A stretch of 64,000 bases of DNA. Origin: a virus (lineage: Duplodnaviria; Heunggongvirae; Uroviricota; Caudoviricetes). Below the pieces are notes generated by a model. The model saw nothing but the letters and a program-made list of their open reading frames with translations, was not told the origin of the DNA and made no database searches. Both the position numbers and the translations under genes were made by a program. Position 1 is the first letter of the stretch; each line of letters starts with the position of its first letter. The stretch lies in IMG/VR virus record IMGVR_UViG_2563366947_000002; one strand, written 5' to 3'. Shown here piece after piece: positions 2,854 through 27,148 of this stretch.

Positions 2854-4284
2854 TTACGGGTAAGAAATGTTGAACGTTGAAGATTTCACGTCAAGATAAA
2901 TGAAGTCATTAAAGTAAACAGCATCTTTCATATTTTGTATTGTTATGTCGTAAGACAGAAACATATCCAGAGACTCTATTACTCGCCAAATATCTTTAAC
3001 TTTTACCTGTGCATAACATTGCTGGGAATCATCATCACTCTGTAGTAATAAACTGAATGATGACGAATCACGACCAAAATTATCTTCCAACGCTGCTTTA
3101 ATAGCATTTTGAGCATCGTCTATCAGAACATTTTTACGTGCAATACCTATAAAATTTATAGTAAATGGCTGTTCATTTGTATCTACATACTCGAACCGCT
3201 TGTTTAACTCATTTGGAACATTCTCTAGAGCTTTCAGTATTTCTGATTTTAGCTGAGCCTGGCTTACACCCGGCTTATGTCCGCAAAAGAAAATTTTGTT
3301 GATGTTTCGAACGTCAAACCCAGTTATTTTCTCTTGTAACGCTTCGCCCCAAACGTTCAACCATGAAGTTCCATGAACAACATTCTGAATGAATTGGCGA
3401 TAATCACCGCCCCATACCACTTGTTCATCGTATGCAACATAATACTGAGCACGATTTCGAGTTTCTTCTGTAGTTTCCATACCACTACCACCGGTAATGA
3501 TCGAATCAGTTTTAAACTCTAGTGACTCCACATATTGAGCGATATTTCCAGCCGGTTCTAACTTTTGTCCTTCAGCCAAAGTATAGTCGCCAAGGCTAGC
3601 CATAACATCGATTCGAACCTGACAGCCTGCTGGAGGCATCATACCCATAGAACCATCACCAAACTTGACTCCAAGTTGTTCTGTAGGTTTATATGCCAAT
3701 GAATAGTGCTTACTCTTGTCTCTGGACATTCTAAATAATGGGTTATATGTCCATTTTTCTTCTACGCCATCTGTAATAACATAAACATCCAGGCTAGAGA
3801 CTTCTTTTGTTAACTCTCTGGAAAGCAACAATGTCAGAAATAAAGTTTCCTTCTCAATATCAAATGTAACGCTAACAGCTTCATGCTGTTTAGTTTCTAC
3901 GCCAGAAACAGTTCCTCCAGCAGGAATTACAACACTGTTAATAATTGCCAAAGGTGTTTGGTCATTGGCAAGCAATTCAGCCCCGGCTGGTAACGTAATA
4001 TCCCGATCAGTTTTATTGGTTATAGACGTTGTTCCGTATGAAGCACTAACAAATCGCCCTACGTAGCTACGGTCTTCAGCAACCGCTAAAATACTTGAGC
4101 GGCGCGTAGCCGTTGAAATAAGTCCCTCAGTGAGGCCGCGGCTTGCAAATGTACGGGCAATATAAATAAGCTGTGATCCGAATATAGCGTGCATCTGCAC
4201 AAACTGACTATTTACAAATCGTGACCACCATGTGTTTTCATTTAACTTGGCATTAAATTTGTCCAGTAATTCTGTAATCGTCAC
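2854..4284 (-). CDS. baseplate protein (BplA/gpJ-like)
   Basis: 476-aa ORF overlapping the upstream gene by 4 nt; position between gp25-like and tail-fiber genes. Confidence 0.45.
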   Translation of the reverse strand: MTITELLDKFNAKLNENTWWSRFVNSQFVQMHAIFGSQLIYIARTFASRGLTEGLISTATRRSSILAVAEDRSYVGRFVSASYGTTSITNKTDRDITLPAGAELLANDQTPLAIINSVVIPAGGTVSGVETKQHEAVSVTFDIEKETLFLTLLLSRELTKEVSSLDVYVITDGVEEKWTYNPLFRMSRDKSKHYSLAYKPTEQLGVKFGDGSMGMMPPAGCQVRIDVMASLGDYTLAEGQKLEPAGNIAQYVESLEFKTDSIITGGSGMETTEETRNRAQYYVAYDEQVVWGGDYRQFIQNVVHGTSWLNVWGEALQEKITGFDVRNINKIFFCGHKPGVSQAQLKSEILKALENVPNELNKRFEYVDTNEQPFTINFIGIARKNVLIDDAQNAIKAALEDNFGRDSSSFSLLLQSDDDSQQCYAQVKVKDIWRVIESLDMFLSYDITIQNMKDAVYFNDFIYLDVKSSTFNISYP

Positions 4285-4655
4285 GCGCCCACCCCACTTG
4301 ATTTCTGCATAACAATATCCATGCTCCCACCTTTCGCATAAAAACTAATTAATAAAGAATCTTCAGAAATTGATGTGCAACGAATCCCCTGCACATCCAA
4401 ACCTGGCAAGTCTTGTCGTAGTTTTTTCATCATTCTCCCTTCAATAGCCACTTCAACTATGTGCGAAGTTTCAGAGCCGAATGGTTCATGCTTAAATTCT
4501 TCCATTGGATTCCCCCAAGAGGGTAAACCATAAACACTCCCTTCAGGGGTTCGTAGCCACTCGTCAAGTCGGGCCATCCATGCTGCGGAACTTCCTTCTG
4601 CAATAATGACACCGCTCTCATTCGTTTGAAGTCTTGCGTCTATTTCATAAAGCAT
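4281..4655 (-). CDS. baseplate wedge protein, gp25/GpW-like
   Basis: 124-aa protein of the size and context of gp25-like baseplate lysozyme-fold proteins, directly downstream of the large tail protein. Confidence 0.45.
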   Translation of the reverse strand: MLYEIDARLQTNESGVIIAEGSSAAWMARLDEWLRTPEGSVYGLPSWGNPMEEFKHEPFGSETSHIVEVAIEGRMMKKLRQDLPGLDVQGIRCTSISEDSLLISFYAKGGSMDIVMQKSSGVGA

Positions 4656-4660
4656 CTTTA

Positions 4661-7600
4661 TTAATCCTCAAGCAGAGCATCCAGCGACGGGTCATTAATA
4701 GTTGTGCTAGCACGTGGTCGCGGTTGCGGCTGCGATGTTTTGACAACCTTATCCGGATCGCCTTTTGTATTGTTCTTGTTCACATTCAGAAGATCGTTCA
4801 GGATAGAGCAGATGTTATCCAGCGCCTTCAACATAGCAGGATCGTTATTTATAGTGTCAGTAGTTAATGGTTGTCTTATTCCGCTTCGTGCGAGATCTGT
4901 TACAGTAGGAAGCTGTGGTGGCATAGCAAGAAAAGGTTCTTGCACGGCTGACGCAGAGCCAAATATGGCATTATTGGCTTCGTTTGATATACCTCTAATG
5001 CTATCTGCGGTTTGTTGAATACCATTATTCAGCCAACTACCGGCGCTCCTGGTAAGCGGGCTAATAGCCCTAGCAATTGTTGAGTTCTGCCCAGTAGCCT
5101 GATAAACCAAATCATTAACAATGCCAGTGCCATCTACCCCACCAATAAGTCGTGAAACGTTATCGCCAATTGCAGGTAACACAGCAGAGCTAATACGTTT
5201 CAGACCTGTTAATGACGAGTCAAACAAAGAGCCAAGCACCCCCTTATCTTCACCATCAATTACCTTGTATCCATTGTCATAAACTGGAATCCCCCTTGAG
5301 TTTACAGGGATTTTTTCACTCTCACTTGCCGAAGAAACACCGGAAAGAAGATCCACTGAAGGCATATCGCGTTCAGCTTTTGGTCTTTTTTGTAAAGCGT
5401 CTCTTATATCAGTTACCTGGCTTGCTTTTTGAAATCCAAAAGATTTACCGGTTAAGCTGGATATCTTTTCAGTAAGAGCCTGATCCATTCCTTTCGCTTT
5501 TTCGGAAAGCGAAGATATAGAACCAAACGAAGTCGCCGACGCAAAATCCTTAATCAGGCCAAGGCTTGTACCAGCAAGGCTGGTAGCCGCACCTCCAAAT
5601 AAATTACCTACCCCGCTGTCATTTATAGCGATTAATCTCTCAAGCAGACTTGATGGAGAGCCAGTATTAACATCAACGTTCTCTGGATTAATCGGTTGCG
5701 ATTGATTGCCTGTTTTTTGTGGCTTTTTGACTGCCTGGGCATGTTGTGCAACCTCAATTGGCTGTTGTGTTGCTGTCGGAACGGCATTCAAAACTGGTTG
5801 AGCTGGAGATTTTCCATTAACATATTTTATCTTGCGACCAACACTATATTGCGAATCGCGGGCAATTAGCTGACCACCATTTTCTTTCTGAATTTTATTA
5901 ATCCGCGCCAATGTTTCGTCAGAGAATTGTCCCTCCCATCGACCAGTATTTGTGTTAAATGCCCCAAGAGCATTCTTTATGAACTCATTGTTAACCGCCG
6001 GGTTTCCACCTTCTTTCGTCGCTATTGCACGAACTAATTGCGTCATAACCTCTGGGTTGCTGACGTCTATTTTTTCATTAGGCGAGACGCCAAGATATTT
6101 GCTGACGTTATCAATATATTGATTAGTATTATTCTCCTTTGGGGGTGCCCATTTGGAAATAATACTGGATACCGTCTGTAGCTTCTGATACCCAGCAGCG
6201 GCGCTGGTGCCGTTGTAATAGCTTGACACCTGGTTTGCCAGCGCCCTGATCCCTTCTTCAGGCGTGTTAAATCGCGCAAAACGTTGTTCACCTTTTGCAT
6301 TTGGCGCTTCCAGCGTCGCCCCTTCCTGATTAGCGAAAACAAGGTTGCCGAGATTATTATTCCGGTAATTGCGGTTTTTAGCGTTGCTGCCGCCAATATT
6401 CAGATCCGCTGCAATGGTGTTGCTGGTAGGGGCATTAAATTCAGCCGGGGAAGTATACCCGTGCTCACCAACACCATCTTCACCATCACGCCCGCCTTGT
6501 AGTTGTCGGCCCAGGTCATTAATTGCGGCTACCGTTTGCTTGGTGCCATCCTCAACGGCTTTCTTAACCTGCGCAGTGCCTTCGCTGCTTGATGAGAACG
6601 ATTCTTTTAGGCTGCTGAATACGGTTTTTGTCGTGTCTATAGAACTATTTATGTCACGAGCAATATCTCCGGTGTCAAAATTCTGAAGTTTTTCACCTGC
6701 CCTTTCGAAGCCTAACGCAGAAATCCCTTTGCCTATCAGGTTGGTTGCACCCGACACTAAGCCGCCCATATCAAGCACATTAGCTGTTGCATAAGCGGTT
6801 TTTTGCTGTGTGGATACAGCATTATCATCACTTAAGCCAAAGGCTGCCTTTTGCGCCTCTGCATCAGTGTAACCGTCTATAGCATCGTATCCTGCCATAG
6901 CGATATTTCCGATAATTGGGATTCCTCTGACGCCAGCCCTTACGGCTGCACCACCGGCAGCTTTTAATGCAATTTTACCTGCCTCTTTTTTTGCGAGGTT
7001 CTCCCCTGTTGCGATAGCTACTTTCTCAGTAGTTGCTTCAGTTGCAGCTTTGGCTATACCGGTACTGGCCGTTTTTCTGGCCCCTTTATCTGCAACTTTC
7101 TCCGTCGTTTTTGAGGCGTCACTGATAGCCTCTTTTCCGGCGTTTCGGGGTTGGCGGTTTTCATTTTTAGCGGAATCATTTTTGCTATTTTGTTGTTTTT
7201 TCTCAACTTTATCTTTTGGTATTGATGTATCGCCTTTTTCCGTTGCAGTTGTTTTAATCTTGTTCTTTTTTGCTTCAGGGCTTTTATCAACTCTTCTATC
7301 CCTTTTAGACTTGTTTTTGTTTCGATTTGTTTTATTCCGATTACGATTTGAAGTAATGCGATCTCTGTTTCGACTAAAAAGATCGCTTAACTTAATCCCA
7401 TTACCTTTTGTTTTCATGGATTTGCGGAGTTTTACTATTTCATCTGAAACATTCTCCAGCTCATCTATGATTCGAGCATCATTGGATTGAAGAACTTTGG
7501 TTTGTTCTTCAACTACTCGTACTGACTTTGCTTCAATCGCGTTGTTAAATGCTGCTGAGGAAACTGAATTTTTTTCATTTCTTGGCGCAGGGTAAGTGAT

Positions 7601-20789: not shown

Positions 20790-20980
20790 AAACTGAGAGT
20801 TAAATTTCGGAATATTTTTGTATTCTCAATTCATTCTCAAATAAATCTCACTGTCAGATCATCATTCATTGGGTGATTAAGATATTCTCAAAGTGAACTC
20901 AATAAGCGCTCTTTTTATCTCGTTTGGTGTGGATTTTTGGGTGCTTCTCTTTTAAAATTACATTTTGATTCTCAAATGTG
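20790..20980. repeat. parC-like centromere repeats (ATTCTCAA iterons) upstream of parM
   Basis: At least four copies of (T/C)ATTCTCAA at 20822, 20833, 20883 and 20967. Confidence 0.4.
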
Positions 20981-21001
20981 TCTCAGAAGTGGAGCAAGAA
21001 G

Positions 21002-21958
21002 ATGCGCATTTTTATCGATGATGGTTCAACCAATATCAAAATGCTGTGGGAGCACGACGGGGAAACCCGCACTCACATCAGCCCTAACAGCTTTAAGCGC
21101 GGATGGTCAGCAACATTTGGTGCTGGCAAGCCGTTTAACTATGTCATTGACGACGAAAAGTATTCGTATGATTTGATCTCGCCAGATGTTCTGCCGACGA
21201 ATAACGTGGAATGGCAATACAGCCCGCTTAACGTCCTGGCTGTTCACCATGCCCTGCTGACAAGCGGTATTGAGCCGCAGGAAGTAGAAATTGTGGTCAC
21301 GCTGCCTCTGGCAGAGTTTTACGACGACGACGCGCAATACAATCTCGATAACATCGAGCGCAAGAAAGCCAGTCTTATGCGCCCCGTCACGCTGAATAAA
21401 GGCAATGTGTTCACGATTAAGAAAGTTACGGTACGACCGGAGTCTATTCCGGCAGGAATTGGCCTGTGCGACAATCTGAACCCTGCCCATTCTGTTCTTA
21501 TCGTCGATTTGGGTGGAACTACCCTTGATGTTTCAATGGTCGCCGGGCAAATGACGGCAGTTTCCCGTGTTTTTGGCGATTCGAATCTTGGTGTATCACT
21601 GGTCACCAGGGAAGTAAGGCAAGCACTTGCCAGAGCCAATACCGAAACGTCAAATTACAATGTCGATCAGCTCATTATTAACCGCCACGATGAAGATTAT
21701 CTGAACGACAATATCAATGACCCATCAGCGGTTGGTGATGTGAAAAAGGCCATTGCCGCAAGCATTGACCGTCTGCGTACCCGCGTTCTTGATGTGATTG
21801 GCGACTTTAAAGGATATACGCATGTCATGGTGATCGGTGGTGGCGCACCGCTGGTGGCAGATGCAATTCGCGAGCAAGTTAATATTCGTGATGACCGTTT
21901 CTTCGTGGCGGATGACCCGCAACTTGCTCTTGTTCATGGCCTGAAAGCAATCGGTTAA
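21002..21958 (+). CDS. parM: actin-like plasmid segregation ATPase ParM/StbA
   Basis: MRIFIDDGSTNIK and ISPNSFKR match the ParM N-terminus; GGAG RBS before the ATG at 21002 (ORF track starts at 20978). Confidence 0.8.
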   Translation: MRIFIDDGSTNIKMLWEHDGETRTHISPNSFKRGWSATFGAGKPFNYVIDDEKYSYDLISPDVLPTNNVEWQYSPLNVLAVHHALLTSGIEPQEVEIVVTLPLAEFYDDDAQYNLDNIERKKASLMRPVTLNKGNVFTIKKVTVRPESIPAGIGLCDNLNPAHSVLIVDLGGTTLDVSMVAGQMTAVSRVFGDSNLGVSLVTREVRQALARANTETSNYNVDQLIINRHDEDYLNDNINDPSAVGDVKKAIAASIDRLRTRVLDVIGDFKGYTHVMVIGGGAPLVADAIREQVNIRDDRFFVADDPQLALVHGLKAIG

Positions 21959-21965
21959 CGAGGTA

Positions 21966-22310
21966 ATGTCCATGTCTCAGGAACGTAAGAAAGTGATGAT
22001 TTATCTTCGCCCAGAGGCTTATGCCAATGAAAAGGCGGCGAGCGAGAAGATAAAAAAACATAGCGATATGGCAAGAACCGCATTGTTGGCAGGGCTTGCG
22101 CTGGGAGAAGTCGATAGCAGGCTACCAGGATTACTGGCTTCCCTGCTGACCGAAGACAATAACCCGGAGCTGATCCGAAAAATGCTGGCATCCTTCCTGG
22201 AACTACCAGCTGTGATTGAGGAGCGCCCTGCCTCCATTGAGCCAGTGAAGGAGCAAGTTGTTGCCAAAAGCGCGTCGGCGCGCAATCTGGCTGACTCTCT
22301 ACCTGATTGA
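21966..22310 (+). CDS. parR: ParR-like centromere-binding adaptor
   Basis: 114-aa ORF right after parM; ALLAGLALG resembles the R1 ParR motif. Confidence 0.55.
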   Translation: MSMSQERKKVMIYLRPEAYANEKAASEKIKKHSDMARTALLAGLALGEVDSRLPGLLASLLTEDNNPELIRKMLASFLELPAVIEERPASIEPVKEQVVAKSASARNLADSLPD

Positions 22311-22558: not shown

Positions 22559-22597
22559 GGAACCGTTTTGATACCAAAATCACACCGAGGAACGGAT

Positions 22598-23239
22598 ATG
22601 ATTATATTGGTAGTCAGCCAAAAAGGTGGCTGTGGAAAATCAACCACAAGCGTAAACATCTGTGCGGAGCTTGCCCGCGCAAATAAGGATGTAGTGTTAC
22701 TAGATGCAGATAAGCAAGGAACAGCTGCCCGCTGGGCAGCTGACCGTAACACGGCAGAGGTTTCTCCTGTTATTCATTGTGTCCAGAAGTTTGGTAATAT
22801 TCGAGAAACACTTCTCGATCTGGATAAGCGTTATGAATTTGTTGTTGTTGATACAGCCGGGCGCGATAGCAAAGAGATGCGTACAGGCATAACCGCTGCA
22901 GATATTGTGTTGGTCCCATTCAGACCATCTCAACCAGATTTAGACACGCTGGCACACTTTGTTGAAGTGTTTGAAGAGGCTTTGGACCTGATGCCTAATC
23001 CTAGCATTAAGGCGTTCGCAGTCTTAACAATGGCCCCATCCAATCCGGTTGTGAATGAAACCAATGAGGCCAAAGAGTACCTGGCTGAATATCCGCAACT
23101 GAAGTTGCTGAAAACCATCATTCGTGATCGTAAGGTTTACCGCGATTGCATGGCTGAAGGGAAGGGCGTTGTTGAGATGGACAACGGGAAAGCTAAAGGT
23201 GAAATCCAGATGTTGGTTAAGGAGTTATTAAGTGATTAA
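22598..23239 (+). CDS. parA: small Walker-type ParA partition ATPase (type Ib, ParF-like)
   Basis: Deviant Walker A (VVSQKGGCGKST), about 213 aa; GAGGAA RBS before the ATG at 22598. Confidence 0.8.
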   Translation: MIILVVSQKGGCGKSTTSVNICAELARANKDVVLLDADKQGTAARWAADRNTAEVSPVIHCVQKFGNIRETLLDLDKRYEFVVVDTAGRDSKEMRTGITAADIVLVPFRPSQPDLDTLAHFVEVFEEALDLMPNPSIKAFAVLTMAPSNPVVNETNEAKEYLAEYPQLKLLKTIIRDRKVYRDCMAEGKGVVEMDNGKAKGEIQMLVKELLSD

Positions 23240-23519
23240 GCCTCGTAAATCGGTAAAAGCCCCCGAAGTAAAAGACCCCGATCTTGAACGCCGAATTGAG
23301 GATTTTGCAAGTAAGGCTGATTTGGTGCCGGGTGAGCAACCAGAAGACAACAAAGTGCTCGATAAGGACGCTCCACGTGATTTTAAATCTATTCGTGTTG
23401 GTTTCAATGAATACGAGTACCAGTTACTTGATGCGTTAAGTAAAAAGCATAATCGCAGCAAATTGAATATGATCCGCCATGCTATCCTCATGTTAGCGGA
23501 GTCTGAGGAAGCAAAATAA
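23232..23519 (+). CDS. ParG-like partition protein (ribbon-helix-helix candidate)
   Basis: 95-aa ORF overlapping the parA stop by 8 nt; charged N-terminal tail, C-terminal region compatible with RHH. Confidence 0.5.
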   Translation: MIKPRKSVKAPEVKDPDLERRIEDFASKADLVPGEQPEDNKVLDKDAPRDFKSIRVGFNEYEYQLLDALSKKHNRSKLNMIRHAILMLAESEEAK

Positions 23520-23787
23520 AGCCTTTCAGGTTGGTTTTAGAACTTAAAAAGTCTTGAACCAAAGGTGCACCAATACACCACTAATTTGGTGCACCTTTAC
23601 ATCCTTTTTGGTTCCAATTGTGTACCATTTGTCATTAATTTACTTATGCGCAAAAGTGGGCTTCATGAAAAAGCTCATTATTGAAATAACGATAGAAAGC
23701 AATTTCTAATCAACTAGTGGTTGTCAGCCTATTCGGCTTATAAGATCATACGCTGTTATACGTTGTTTACGCTTTGAGGAATCCACA

Positions 23788-25449
23788 ATGAGTGAGGCAG
23801 AAGCCCGCCCGACTAACTTTATTCGTCAGATCATCGATGAAGATCTGGCCAGTGGTAAGCACACCACAGTACATACCCGTTTCCCGCCGGAACCGAATGG
23901 CTATCTGCATATTGGTCATGCGAAATCTATCTGCCTGAACTTCGGGATCGCCCAGGACTATAAAGGCCAGTGCAACCTGCGTTTCGACGACACTAACCCG
24001 GTAAAAGAAGATATCGAGTACGTCGAGTCGATTAAAAACGACGTTGAATGGTTAGGTTTTCACTGGTCTGGCAACATCCGTTACTCCTCCGATTATTTTG
24101 ACAAACTCCATGCCTATGCTGTTGAACTGATCAACAAAGGCCTGGCGTATGTTGACGAACTGACACCGGAACAGATCCGCGAATACCGCGGCACCCTGAC
24201 GCAGCCGGGTAAAAACAGCCCGTACCGCGACCGCAGCATTGAAGAGAACCTGGCGCTGTTCGAAAAAATGCGTGCCGGTGGTTTTGAAGAAGGTAAAGCC
24301 TGCCTGCGTGCGAAAATCGACATGGCTTCGCCGTTTATCGTGATGCGCGACCCGGTGCTGTACCGTATTAAGTTTGCTGAACACCACCAGACTGGCAACA
24401 AGTGGTGCATCTACCCGATGTACGACTTCACCCACTGCATCAGCGATGCGCTGGAAGGTATTACGCACTCTCTGTGTACGCTTGAGTTCCAGGACAACCG
24501 TCGTCTGTATGACTGGGTACTGGACAACATCACCATTCCTGTTCACCCGCGCCAGTACGAATTCTCGCGCCTGAATCTGGAATACACCGTGATGTCCAAG
24601 CGTAAGCTGAACCTGCTGGTGACCGACAAGCACGTTGAAGGCTGGGATGACCCGCGTATGCCGACCATTTCCGGTCTGCGTCGTCGTGGTTACACTGCGG
24701 CTTCTATTCGTGAGTTCTGCAAACGCATCGGCGTGACCAAGCAGGACAACACCATTGAGATGGCGTCGCTGGAATCCTGCATTCGTGAAGATCTCAACGA
24801 AAACGCCCCGCGCGCAATGGCGGTTATCGATCCGGTGAAACTGGTTATCGAAAACTATCAGGGCGAAGGCGAAATGGTCACCATGCCGAACCATCCGAAC
24901 AAACCGGAAATGGGGAGCCGTCAGGTGCCGTTTAGCGGTGAGATTTGGATTGATCGCGCCGATTTCCGCGAAGAAGCTAACAAGCAGTACAAACGTCTGG
25001 TGCTGGGTAAAGAAGTGCGTCTGCGTAATGCTTATGTGATTAAGGCAGAACGCGTCGAGAAAGATGCCGAAGGTAATATCACCACCATCTTCTGTACTTA
25101 TGACGCCGATACCTTAAGCAAAGATCCGGCAGATGGTCGTAAAGTGAAAGGCGTTATTCACTGGGTGAGCGCGGCACATGCGCTGCCGGTTGAAATCCGC
25201 CTGTACGATCGTCTGTTCAGCGTGCCGAACCCAGGTGCTGCGGATGATTTCCTGTCGGTGATTAACCCGGAATCGCTGGTGATCAAACAGGGTTTTGCTG
25301 AACCGTCTCTGAAAGAAGCGGTAGCGGGTAAAGCATTCCAGTTTGAGCGTGAAGGTTATTTCTGCCTCGACAGCCGCCATTCTACGGCGGAAAAACCGGT
25401 ATTTAACCGCACCGTTGGGCTGCGTGATACCTGGGCGAAGTTAGGTTAA
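23788..25449 (+). CDS. glnS: glutaminyl-tRNA synthetase
   Basis: 553-aa translation is near-identical by recall to E. coli GlnS over its full length (HIGH motif [17 protein letters not shown] motif); own upstream region and terminator. Confidence 0.95.
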
Positions 25450-25475
25450 TAGGTATTTCGCCACATAAAAAAGTA

Positions 25476-25499
25476 AACGCCGCTACTGCGGCGTTTTTT
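25476..25499 (+). terminator. rho-independent terminator after glnS
   Basis: AACGCCGCTACTGCGGCGTT hairpin plus T-run; abuts the dam-like stop codon. Confidence 0.7.
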
Positions 25500-26403
25500 A
25501 CTTCATTATTGCAATTATATCGTTAGCAACTACACGTGTTGACGCCTTGCAGGACACCGACCGTCTGGCTGCCATATGATGTACTTTAAACCCGTTTCCT
25601 TCATATAGTTCACGGATGTTTGGCGCACCACTATTTGTTATCACTACCTTAGCGCCGCGCTGGTGGGCTTCCACCAATAGAGATACCAGCCGTTTCTGTT
25701 CGTCGAAACGGAAGCTATTTCCTGAATAACTGGTAAACCCTTCTGTATCCGGCAGCGGTTCATACGGCGGATCGCAAAAAATCACATCGCCTTCACCAGC
25801 CGCCTCGATGACGCCAGCAAAGTCACCTGATACAAAGGACGTGTTTTTGAGTACGTCATCAGCCAAAAATGCCTCCATCTCTGCATGTGGGAAGTAGGGC
25901 GCTTTGTATTTGCCATACCCCACGTTGAACTCGCCATTTTGGTTGTACCGCGTTACGCCATTAAAACAGTGCCGATTAAGGTACAAAAAGGCGGCAGCAT
26001 GATGTAGCTGGTCATACTTTCCTCTGTTAAATGCCTCACGCACTTCGAGGTAAGCGTCAGCGTTGTTGTAATTTTGGAAAAAACTATATGACAGCGTGAC
26101 AAGCGAATGTCCTTCTCGCTGCAATGTCTGATAGAAGTTAATCAGGTCACCGTTAATATCATTAAGCAGGTTGTGGCGAAATCCTGCATTCGTAAATACG
26201 GAACCGCCACCAACGAATGGTTCTATTAACCGCTTACCGTGTGGTAGATGCTCAAGCACTGTAGGCAATTCTGAGAATTTACCACCTACCCATTTGAATA
26301 TCGGACGCTCATATTCATCCGGAGTCCGAATGGTGCGCATATAGCTAATTTCAGCCATCGTATCCTGTTTTTCTATGGCTATGCTTGCTATAGATTTACT
26401 CAT
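25498..26403 (-). CDS. N6-adenine DNA methyltransferase, Dam family (Dmt Dam-like part)
   Basis: FKWVGGK and DPPY motifs; preferred start is the ATG at 26401-26403 with AAGGGGG RBS (ORF track extends to 26499). Confidence 0.75.
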   Translation of the reverse strand: MSKSIASIAIEKQDTMAEISYMRTIRTPDEYERPIFKWVGGKFSELPTVLEHLPHGKRLIEPFVGGGSVFTNAGFRHNLLNDINGDLINFYQTLQREGHSLVTLSYSFFQNYNNADAYLEVREAFNRGKYDQLHHAAAFLYLNRHCFNGVTRYNQNGEFNVGYGKYKAPYFPHAEMEAFLADDVLKNTSFVSGDFAGVIEAAGEGDVIFCDPPYEPLPDTEGFTSYSGNSFRFDEQKRLVSLLVEAHQRGAKVVITNSGAPNIRELYEGNGFKVHHMAARRSVSCKASTRVVANDIIAIMK

Positions 26404-27148
26404 AGAGCACCCCCTTATTCGCTTCGAAAACTGCCTTTGCGAATCCATGTGGAGTAGCACTTCGAAAATTAGCCCTGTCAGGCCCTGGTGGCGCGGCATG
26501 GATTCTGTTATCTGGCTTGCCTAATGATTCGTCCATTAGGGCATCAGGCATGACAAAGCCCTGGCCGCTCCAGAGGCATGTTTTTTTGGTGTAGTTATCT
26601 TCCTGACAATATGCAGTGAAGAAGTAAGGGTGAAAGATGTGATCTGGCTTACGCCAGAATGTCGATATTTTGCTGACCGGATTTTCAATCATGTACGGAC
26701 AACCGATCATCTTTGCAATGTCATAACACTGCCAGACAACCTGCATTGCTTTGAACTGGAAAACCGGATCTTTATTAGCCTTGTCCGAAAACCAGCGCGC
26801 GCCGGAAACAGCCAGGTCAGTACACGGTGGGAACCCGGCCAGAAACACGATGCGCTGCAAATTCTTACGGAGAAAAGCGTATACTTCATCGCTATCGATG
26901 ATCGCACTAATACGCGTCAGAACGGCACCTGATTGCATCCGCTCGTCACTGGTCGATAAGTGCTGTGGATCGACGATAGCGGCATCGACACCGTATTCCA
27001 GCCAGGGGGCAACCATTGCCCCCGTAAAATCACAAAGACTCACAACAAGCGGTCGGTTATTATCGTTCTGCTTCACCGCCAATGGCCTCCACCAGCGCGT
27101 TAAACAGTGCAGATAATTCGCCCGTAAAGAGCACGAAATCAGCATCAA
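26396..27148 (-). CDS. putative C5-cytosine methyltransferase-like protein (Dmt second part)
   Basis: Motif-I-like [10 protein letters not shown] motif [12 protein letters not shown] and ENV-like IENPV; only about 250 aa; 5' end overlaps the rdgC 3' end, so the true start is uncertain. Confidence 0.5.

Follow-up and report, generated by a model that had tools for sequence, protein, structure and literature searches.

We analysed a 64,000-nucleotide stretch of DNA, referred to below as the window, from IMG/VR virus record IMGVR_UViG_2563366947_000002 (Caudoviricetes), and concentrated on a gene for glutaminyl-tRNA synthetase (GlnRS), glnS, which lies between positions 23520 and 25500. The window belongs to a phage-plasmid of the phage D6 type, which is P1-like. 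Segment 23520-25500 is 98.7% identical at the DNA level to Escherichia phage D6 (MF356679.1 / NC_050154.1), segment 22568-26499 is 99.1% identical to plasmids pSL26_91 and pYU39_89, and the gene order parM, stbB-like, parA, orf61, glnS, dam, dcm-like, rdgC, baseplate, tail is that of D6 orf58 to orf69. An earlier note, made from the letters of the window, had described a complete host-type glnS, near-identical to that of E. coli and lying between partition genes and a dam-like gene, and had asked whether it was the scar of a transduction-type capture or a selected cargo gene. The neighbours are as described: a ParA-family ATPase gene and the small orf61 on the left, and dam on the right. Coordinates are collected in Table 1.

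Table 1. Features of the glnS locus in the window, with the evidence for each.
Feature	Position	Strand	Evidence
glnS coding sequence	23788..25449	+	list of open reading frames, TIGR00440 match, structure alignment, residue check
Captured glnS leader	23690..23787	+	alignment with E. coli glnS upstream region
glnS sigma-70 promoter-like site, TTGTCA-17-GATCAT, GATC in the -10 hexamer	23721..23749	+	consensus match
Lineage-specific 5' tract of glnS (coding positions 250-720)	24037..24507	+	allele search, neighbour-joining tree
Bidirectional intrinsic terminator, hairpin 25475-25496 and T-run to 25499	25475..25499		homology to E. coli glnS terminator, fold
9-bp direct repeat TCATTATTG, left copy	23675..23683	+	repeat count
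9-bp direct repeat TCATTATTG, right copy, inside the last dam codons	25503..25511	+	repeat count
ParA-family partition ATPase (D6 orf60 equivalent), left neighbour	22568..23239	+	NF041546 ParA_partition, E=1e-47, 162 bits, below the 180-bit cutoff; synteny with D6 orf60
Small open reading frame (D6 orf61 equivalent), presumed partner of ParA	23232..23519	+	list of open reading frames, D6 orf61
Dam-family adenine methylase (D6 orf63 equivalent), right neighbour, convergent	25498..26499	-	list of open reading frames, D6 synteny
Perfect 13-bp inverted repeat AAAGGTGCACCAA/TTGGTGCACCTTT, backbone spacer just after orf61, outside the glnS insert	23561..23598		repeat search

The open reading frame of 553 amino acids is an intact coding sequence for a class I glutaminyl-tRNA synthetase. 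In an NCBIfam search it scored 1067.4 bits against the TIGR00440 glnS equivalog (cutoff 425.8), with profile positions 1-524 of 524 covered, and residues 1-553 could be aligned over their full length with the crystal structures 1o0b, 1gtr and 1qtq of E. coli GlnRS. Identity to E. coli chromosomal glnS is 95.8-97.1% for the DNA and about 99% for the protein, so that the near-identity announced in the earlier note was confirmed. Six conservative replacements were found relative to K-12 GlnRS (V97I, Q106K, I112V, V151I, D510E and V552L), and the window protein ends in KLG* instead of KVGE*, being one residue shorter. The HIGH (41-44) and VMSKR (268-272) motifs are intact, and the equivalents of D235, I129, R130, E131, L136, C229, Y211, Q255, K270, R341 and R402, which are residues for catalysis or tRNA-Gln recognition in GlnRS, are unchanged. 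By equivalog cutoff, signature motifs and full-length colinearity, the window gene is a member of the GlnRS family. The element also carries tRNA genes of its own, as the earlier note had stated. Four of these were found at 61957-63723 on the minus strand, for Met (CAT), Ser (TGA), Thr (TGT) and Asn (GTT), with no tRNA-Gln among those detected in the window; the same four anticodon specificities have been reported for pYU39_89. Because the element has no tRNA-Gln and all the catalytic and tRNA-recognition residues checked are unchanged, the encoded protein would be a fully active GlnRS charging host tRNA-Gln. The gene has a GC content of 52.3% (60% at third codon positions) in a backbone of 46.5%, and this host-like composition fits continued exchange with host genes or codon selection.

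The presence, position and cargo status of glnS in this type of element are already annotated and published, and the finding of the gene is in this respect a correct re-discovery. At the identical site the D6 record has orf62, annotated as "glutaminyl-tRNA synthetase, similar to E. coli GlnS", with orf60 (parA-like) and orf61 to its left and orf63 (dam) to its right. Compared to the window gene, D6 orf62 and its pYU39_89-type equivalents have the identical site, the same junctions and the same KLG* C-terminus; D6 orf62 shows allelic differences only, 24 nucleotides in the first 1650, its 3' part resembling K-12, where that of the window comes nearer to chr_RIVM, an allele from a different E. 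coli chromosome. In a 2019 study, glnS was reported in all D6-like genomes examined and termed a moron or cargo gene, with citation of the D6 genome paper, and a role in fitness or plasmid maintenance was proposed by analogy with the cysS gene of plasmid pBT1 (PMC6799933). The statement that such a gene is not part of the P1 gene set is thus correct for P1, with the restriction that glnS is a known member of the D6 set. The present analysis adds the empty site and the repeat that flanks the insert, a 5' allele specific to the lineage, a mosaic attributed to gene conversion, figures for selection, and the retention of a Dam-sensitive promoter beside a phage dam gene. All of this refines what was known of the feature and does not define a system of a new type.

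The band of 95-99% identity to glnS holds about 105 plasmid records from E. coli, Salmonella and Shigella and, in the plasmid collection searched, also takes in a few chromosome-sized records; nearly all are D6-type, non-mobilizable and about 90 kb long. Among the matches listed, D6-type copies are 96.8-98.9% identical to the window gene. The 5,426 complete E. coli genomes hold 81 plasmid-borne copies, and the element is present in about 1.5% of them as well as in Salmonella and Shigella. The survey of other D6-like genomes proposed in the earlier note therefore recovered the same insertion in D6 and in more than 100 complete plasmids. A chimeric assembly or a pseudogene had also been considered in the note. 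Nothing in the window points to either, and the few frameshifted database records are ridden with indels: NZ_CP031917.1 (333-1989) has five single-base gaps in glnS and a neighbouring dam that is also annotated as frameshifted, as is typical of assembly error, and pSa1423-160k (NZ_MK356558.1, 6001-7648), which was left out of the count of intact copies given below, has indels throughout the region. Both look like (long-read) assembly errors and are not countable as pseudogenes unchecked. As the arrangement is identical in the D6 record and in more than 100 independent complete plasmids, and the reading frame is intact, we attach a negligible probability to a chimera or a pseudogene.

The inserted unit measures about 1.8 kb and comprises a leader of about 100 bp with the promoter, the coding sequence and the terminator, all placed in the short spacer between orf61 and dam. 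Alignment with the E. coli glnS locus, the first check suggested in the earlier note, set its limits at about 23690 or 23720 on the left and 25499 on the right. Near-identity to the K-12 locus starts at GTTGTCAGCC (23720), the -35 hexamer, and a weaker homology of the leader, about 60% in the alignment as read, runs left to about 23690. That the gene keeps its own upstream region and terminator was thus verified. The repetitive extragenic palindromic (REP) elements that separate the glnS stop codon from the terminator in E. coli and E. ruysiae are absent in the window; Salmonella and Citrobacter chromosomes likewise lack REP elements after glnS.

Sister plasmids without glnS share the backbone of parM, parA, orf61, dam and rdgC (identity about 84-87%), and do not contain the glnS leader. 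The empty site was read in NZ_CP104667.1 (L101, 3953-4090) and in E. marmotae NZ_CP056699.1 (L102, 2453-2590), where orf61 is followed by about 135 bp with a different bidirectional hairpin, AAAGCCCCATATGGGGCTTT, and then by the dam stop codon. NZ_LR890273.1 and NZ_CP069647.1 are also devoid of glnS, judging from their match pattern. When window segment 22568-23719 was used as a query, matches ended at orf61 in 12 of the 60 E. coli genomes listed (94 matched in all), and these may be of the empty-site type. Presence or absence at a fixed site among close relatives, and a composition unlike that of the backbone, are traits by which morons are recognised, and glnS displays both.

Two of the four copies of the 9-mer TCATTATTG found in the 64 kb (0.89 expected) bracket glnS; by a rough estimate, the chance that two 60-bp junction windows have a 9-mer in common is about 0.01-0.03. 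The dam product ends in ...AIMK* at filled sites and in ...ATLN* at empty sites. All glnS-bearing relatives have the same left junction, including lineages in which the identity of parA-orf61 to the window falls to 78%, as well as plasmid pEF-4 of E. fergusonii, and all except pEF-4 have the KLG* ending. Because the junctions and the altered C-terminus are common to the glnS-bearing relatives, we concluded that the sequences compared would go back to one ancestral insertion of the whole transcription unit, probably by illegitimate or microhomology recombination. The idea of a transduction-type capture did not stand: a headful event of the P1 type would not give a 1.8-kb insert that coincides with a single transcription unit and has a 9-bp repeat on either side. 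The glnS of pEF-4 (NZ_CP137859.1, 6001-7665) occupies the same site but encodes 554 amino acids, ending in KVEG*. It diverges by about 5% from the window gene and from E. coli glnS alike, perhaps as a result of conversion by the E. fergusonii chromosomal gene.

The promoter and the terminator of the insert are those of the E. coli chromosomal gene (b0680), from which the window copy differs by its plasmid location, the lack of REP elements before the terminator, its last codons and a distinct 5' third. The terminator hairpin, AAACGCCGC-TACT-GCGGCGTTT followed by a T-run, has a predicted fold on either strand (z = -4.6 and z = -4.1), and could for this reason terminate transcription of both glnS (+) and dam (-). 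As the earlier note had observed, it abuts the dam-like gene, whose stop codon (25498-25500, minus strand) is made of the last two T of the T-run and A25500. With what appear to be its own promoter and terminator, glnS would be an autonomous transcription unit, another trait of morons. All aligned chromosomal copies from Escherichia, Salmonella and Citrobacter, and all aligned D6-type copies, retain the GATC of the -10 hexamer, the remainder of the leader showing scattered substitutions in the same alignment. Dam represses glnS in E. coli, and deletion of dam or mutation of the Dam sites de-represses it (Plumbridge and Soll 1987, as cited in PMC11741368); in RNA-seq data, the log2 fold-change of glnS in a dam deletion strain was +1.08 (PMC11741368).

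By these precedents, the plasmid gene would be transcribed from its native sigma-70 promoter at a lower, modest level when the prophage DNA is fully methylated by Dam, and at a higher level from unmethylated or hemimethylated DNA, for instance shortly after the DNA has entered the cell or been replicated. The methylation state of this promoter could be set by the phage Dam gene next to glnS, but the adjacency of glnS and dam may be coincidental. These considerations lead to a possible role in infection or the lytic phase, in which the Dam-sensitive promoter of incoming or replicating phage DNA would be de-repressed and a pulse of GlnRS would support translation alongside the phage tRNAs. The retained GATC, the results of the dam deletion and of the promoter-site mutation in E. 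coli, the dam gene next door and the four tRNA genes all speak for such a helper function. However, the GATC came with the host promoter and chromosomes conserve it too, so that it need not point to selection specific to the phage; the effect described for E. coli is no more than about two-fold; and the phage proteins are not rich in glutamine. We therefore hold this role to be unlikely.

The gene is a mosaic. Coding positions 251-720 differ at 21 sites (4.5%) from the nearest E. coli chromosomal allele, and positions 721-1650 at only 3-4 sites per segment. Searched against the 5,426 E. coli genomes, the 5' tract was at least 99% identical in 31 records, of which the one itemised is a plasmid; the chromosomes in an evenly spaced listing from these genomes were at most 95.5% identical. 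In neighbour-joining trees the phage-type 5' segment forms a clade of its own, about as far from E. coli as E. ruysiae is, whereas the middle segment gives a tree in which alleles from plasmids and from chromosomes are mixed. Other plasmids have a different patchwork. Over positions 251-720, pEc1079_2 shows 7 differences from the chromosomal allele RIVM_C037791 compared to 22 from the window, and over positions 1101-1650 D6 and pSL26_91 resemble K-12/E22, from which they differ at 1-2 sites in each segment. Recombination is supported by a four-gamete test, in which sites lying within 100 bp of each other had an incompatibility of 0.142, compared to 0.360 +/- 0.038 when site order was permuted, and none of 1000 permutations gave a value as low.

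The simplest history that would account for this pattern starts with a capture long ago from an Escherichia-type donor outside the E. coli genomes searched. Internal tracts would later have been overwritten repeatedly, as one E. coli host after another donated chromosomal glnS sequence by gene conversion, while the ends of the gene, which anchor it in the plasmid, would have kept the signature of the lineage, the 5' third being the older, own allele. A recent capture from E. coli was ruled out for the 5' third by the 95.5% ceiling among listed chromosomes and by the separate clade. E. ruysiae, the only Escherichia among the species-representative matches listed, is 5.7% divergent in the 5' tract and was rejected as the donor. 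An exact-pattern scan of metagenome contigs for the phage-type allele, carried out as a donor search, returned only two D6-type contigs. Conversion by the current host was rejected as well: in strains 88.0502 and FWSEC0003 the plasmid tracts did not match the allele of the resident chromosome, so that the conversions seem to be historical and to have occurred in earlier hosts. We saw no sign of transfer from plasmid to chromosome, the phage-type 5' allele being on no chromosome in the evenly spaced listing, and the exchange looks one-directional so far, from chromosome to plasmid. Neither was integration into the chromosome through glnS homology seen, the parA-orf61 module being always on plasmids in the 94 genomes that have it.

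Conservation of the gene was assessed on a sample of D6-type copies, and in 12 of the 12 that were readable glnS was intact at 553 amino acids. Synonymous divergence (dS) among these 12 plasmid copies was 0.091 and the ratio of nonsynonymous to synonymous divergence (dN/dS) was 0.027, a value that is partly confounded, since tracts imported from chromosomes arrive already purified; six E. coli chromosomal sequences gave a dN/dS of 0.007. Alleles found on plasmids only comprise 49 synonymous and 9 nonsynonymous changes, and the singletons among them, a count which reduces the confounding and does not remove it, 20 and 4. Under neutrality, roughly three nonsynonymous changes per synonymous one are expected. 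The promoter, including its GATC, and the terminator are conserved in the plasmid copies too. Copies carried in Salmonella are 2-3 nucleotides from their nearest E. coli or D6 counterparts, and have stayed of the E. coli type in hosts whose chromosomal gene is 14-17% different over the three segments compared. The plasmid glnS is under strong purifying selection.

Alternatively, the gene could be a neutral scar of the capture which hitch-hikes on a successful element and looks conserved through constant repair from the chromosomal copy. Gene conversion from chromosomal alleles is indeed clear, a sister lineage does without glnS, and the plasmid gene is not known to confer a phenotype. But the unconverted 5' third, 4-5% diverged from E. 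coli, has accumulated only 3-4 conservative replacements; the singletons private to plasmids keep their synonymous excess; the readable copies are all intact, even those in Salmonella, where a divergence of about 13% should block repair by conversion; and the promoter and the terminator are conserved as well. Such a scar is improbable in our view. Of the two origins offered in the earlier note, it is the selected cargo that the junctions, the intact reading frames, the selection and the empty site uphold.

The evidence favours a selected cargo gene, not a scar, a chimera or a pseudogene, because there was one old insertion with conserved junctions, all 12 readable reading frames are intact, purifying selection is visible and a sister lineage preserves the empty site. 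As a whole, we regard it as likely that the D6 lineage carries glnS as cargo which was inserted once in an ancestor, is selected, has become mosaic, probably encodes an active GlnRS and is read from a native, Dam-sensitive promoter. The benefit would most probably be that the element and its lysogen have additional or assured GlnRS capacity, aiding fitness or retention. Several points weigh against this reading. GlnRS function of this copy is deduced from its sequence only, as are the donors of the converted tracts, the two plasmid-chromosome pairs available having given no match with the resident chromosome. A match to glnS was found in 5,425 of the 5,426 E. coli genomes, at 5,428 chromosomal places, and since the chromosomal gene is kept, carriers are evidently not reliant on the plasmid copy alone. 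The phage proteins of the window contain 3.9% glutamine, which reveals no obvious extra demand for charged tRNA-Gln and led us to discard a glutamine-rich phage proteome as the reason for a further GlnRS. Finally, the sister lineage without glnS does well.

In terms of function, the closest analogue is cysS of pBT1 in S. Typhimurium D23580, also a paralogue of a housekeeping synthetase gene on a low-copy extrachromosomal element of Enterobacteriaceae, for which a role in plasmid maintenance has been proposed. The DNA of pBT1 cysS has 79% identity to the chromosomal gene, and in experiments the plasmid gene was required and the chromosomal copy repressed (PMC6333337). In contrast, the window glnS is about 97% identical to its chromosomal counterpart, recombines with it, and is known here from its sequence, whereas pBT1 cysS was studied at the bench. 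What the two have in common is that a synthetase paralogue is carried on a plasmid. By analogy, the element could provide an essential synthetase, with chromosomal glnS silenced or no longer needed, and loss of the plasmid would carry a penalty for the cell. The precedent itself argues for this, as pBT1 cysS is needed for normal growth of D23580 and chromosomal cysS is down-regulated there (PMC6333337), and the authors of the D6-like population study proposed the same role for glnS (PMC6799933). The gene lies directly beside two partition systems, and an unrelated IncI-type Citrobacter plasmid has cysS and glnS side by side. Against it, essentially every E. coli genome keeps its chromosomal glnS, the element already has toxin-antitoxin and partition systems, and the plasmid promoter is the chromosomal one, which leaves no obvious way to out-compete the chromosomal copy. 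A retention device of this kind may be envisaged, and we find it doubtful.

The Citrobacter plasmid just mentioned, C. cronae p.S175-1.4 (NZ_CP060445.1, 98 kb), is conjugative (MOBP/MPF_I) and is not a phage-plasmid. Its cysS and glnS (features at 3331-4722 and 5488-7155) are near a HigB-type toxin gene. This glnS is intact, like that of the window, with which it has about 87% identity; it groups with the chromosomal glnS of Citrobacter, and its promoter has lost the GATC. It is a separate, independent capture. Huge phages (above 200 kb) encode aminoacyl-tRNA synthetases alongside phage tRNAs, but these are very large lytic genomes with usually divergent genes, whereas the window represents a 90-kb temperate phage-plasmid with a nearly host-identical gene.

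A last role to be weighed is counter-defence, in which a spare GlnRS would guard translation when a toxin targets GlnRS, tRNA-Gln or its charging. The support is a general analogy only: second synthetase copies give resistance to synthetase inhibitors in other systems, and tRNA-targeting defences are reported to drive phages to carry tRNAs (PMC10264068). Against it, the plasmid protein, with about 99% identity to the host enzyme and only conservative changes located away from the functional residues checked, would be equally sensitive to any inhibitor, and no toxin is known to target GlnRS itself. We consider this role very improbable. Ranked by plausibility, the candidate benefits are general fitness or retention, including retention of the pBT1 cysS type, then help to translation at entry or replication, then neutral hitch-hiking, and counter-defence last.

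Several observations were made on the surroundings of the gene. To the left of glnS, two different partition systems adjoin each other, one of the ParM/StbA type (20978-21958 and 21966-22310) and one of the ParA type (22568-23239 and 23232-23519); orf61, in the latter, had no NCBIfam match. The inverted repeat AAAGGTGCACCAA/TTGGTGCACCTTT that follows orf61 (RNA fold z = -3.8) is partly common to relatives without glnS, and is nested in a second pair, GAACCAAA/TTTGGTTC (23556-23614), with the motif GGTGCACC present twice. Since pEF-4 keeps a hairpin at this position despite different arms, AAAGAGGCGTCAA/TTGATGCCTCTTT, a conserved structure is suggested, which may be the parA-orf61 terminator or a partition site. 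An open reading frame of 51 amino acids (23554-23709), which overlaps the backbone spacer and the repeat region, was treated as incidental.

To the right, the methylase region (25498-27148) differs among relatives. In the window and D6 it consists of two genes, dam (about 0.9 kb) and one that is cytosine-methylase-like (about 0.7 kb), and pE2863-2, p13ZX36-90 and the E. marmotae plasmid have a single Dam-family gene of 2,289 bp, like P1 dmt. In the D6-type metagenome contig OFLS01000123.1 (1-4895), megablast similarity stops about 10 bp before the end of glnS (window position 25439), and the following 4.9 kb is devoid of any match to the window, so that its downstream module differs.

It is unusual for a housekeeping aminoacyl-tRNA synthetase to be kept for long on a temperate phage-plasmid. 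One may go further and picture glnS as an actively used module, its expression coupled to phage DNA methylation through the -10 GATC beside the phage Dam gene, that either binds the host to the plasmid in the manner of pBT1 cysS or supports translation after entry or replication, while 1.7 kb of near-identity makes the phage-plasmid a recurrent recombination partner of host glnS; taken in full, we would give this picture little credence. The patchwise exchange with chromosomal glnS is in itself a clear natural example of gene conversion between plasmid and chromosome at an essential locus. If glnS does tie the host to the plasmid or help infection, it would join pBT1 cysS as a second case in which a mobile element exploits an essential gene of translation, and this would matter for the persistence of P1/D6-type elements, which are often carriers of resistance genes.

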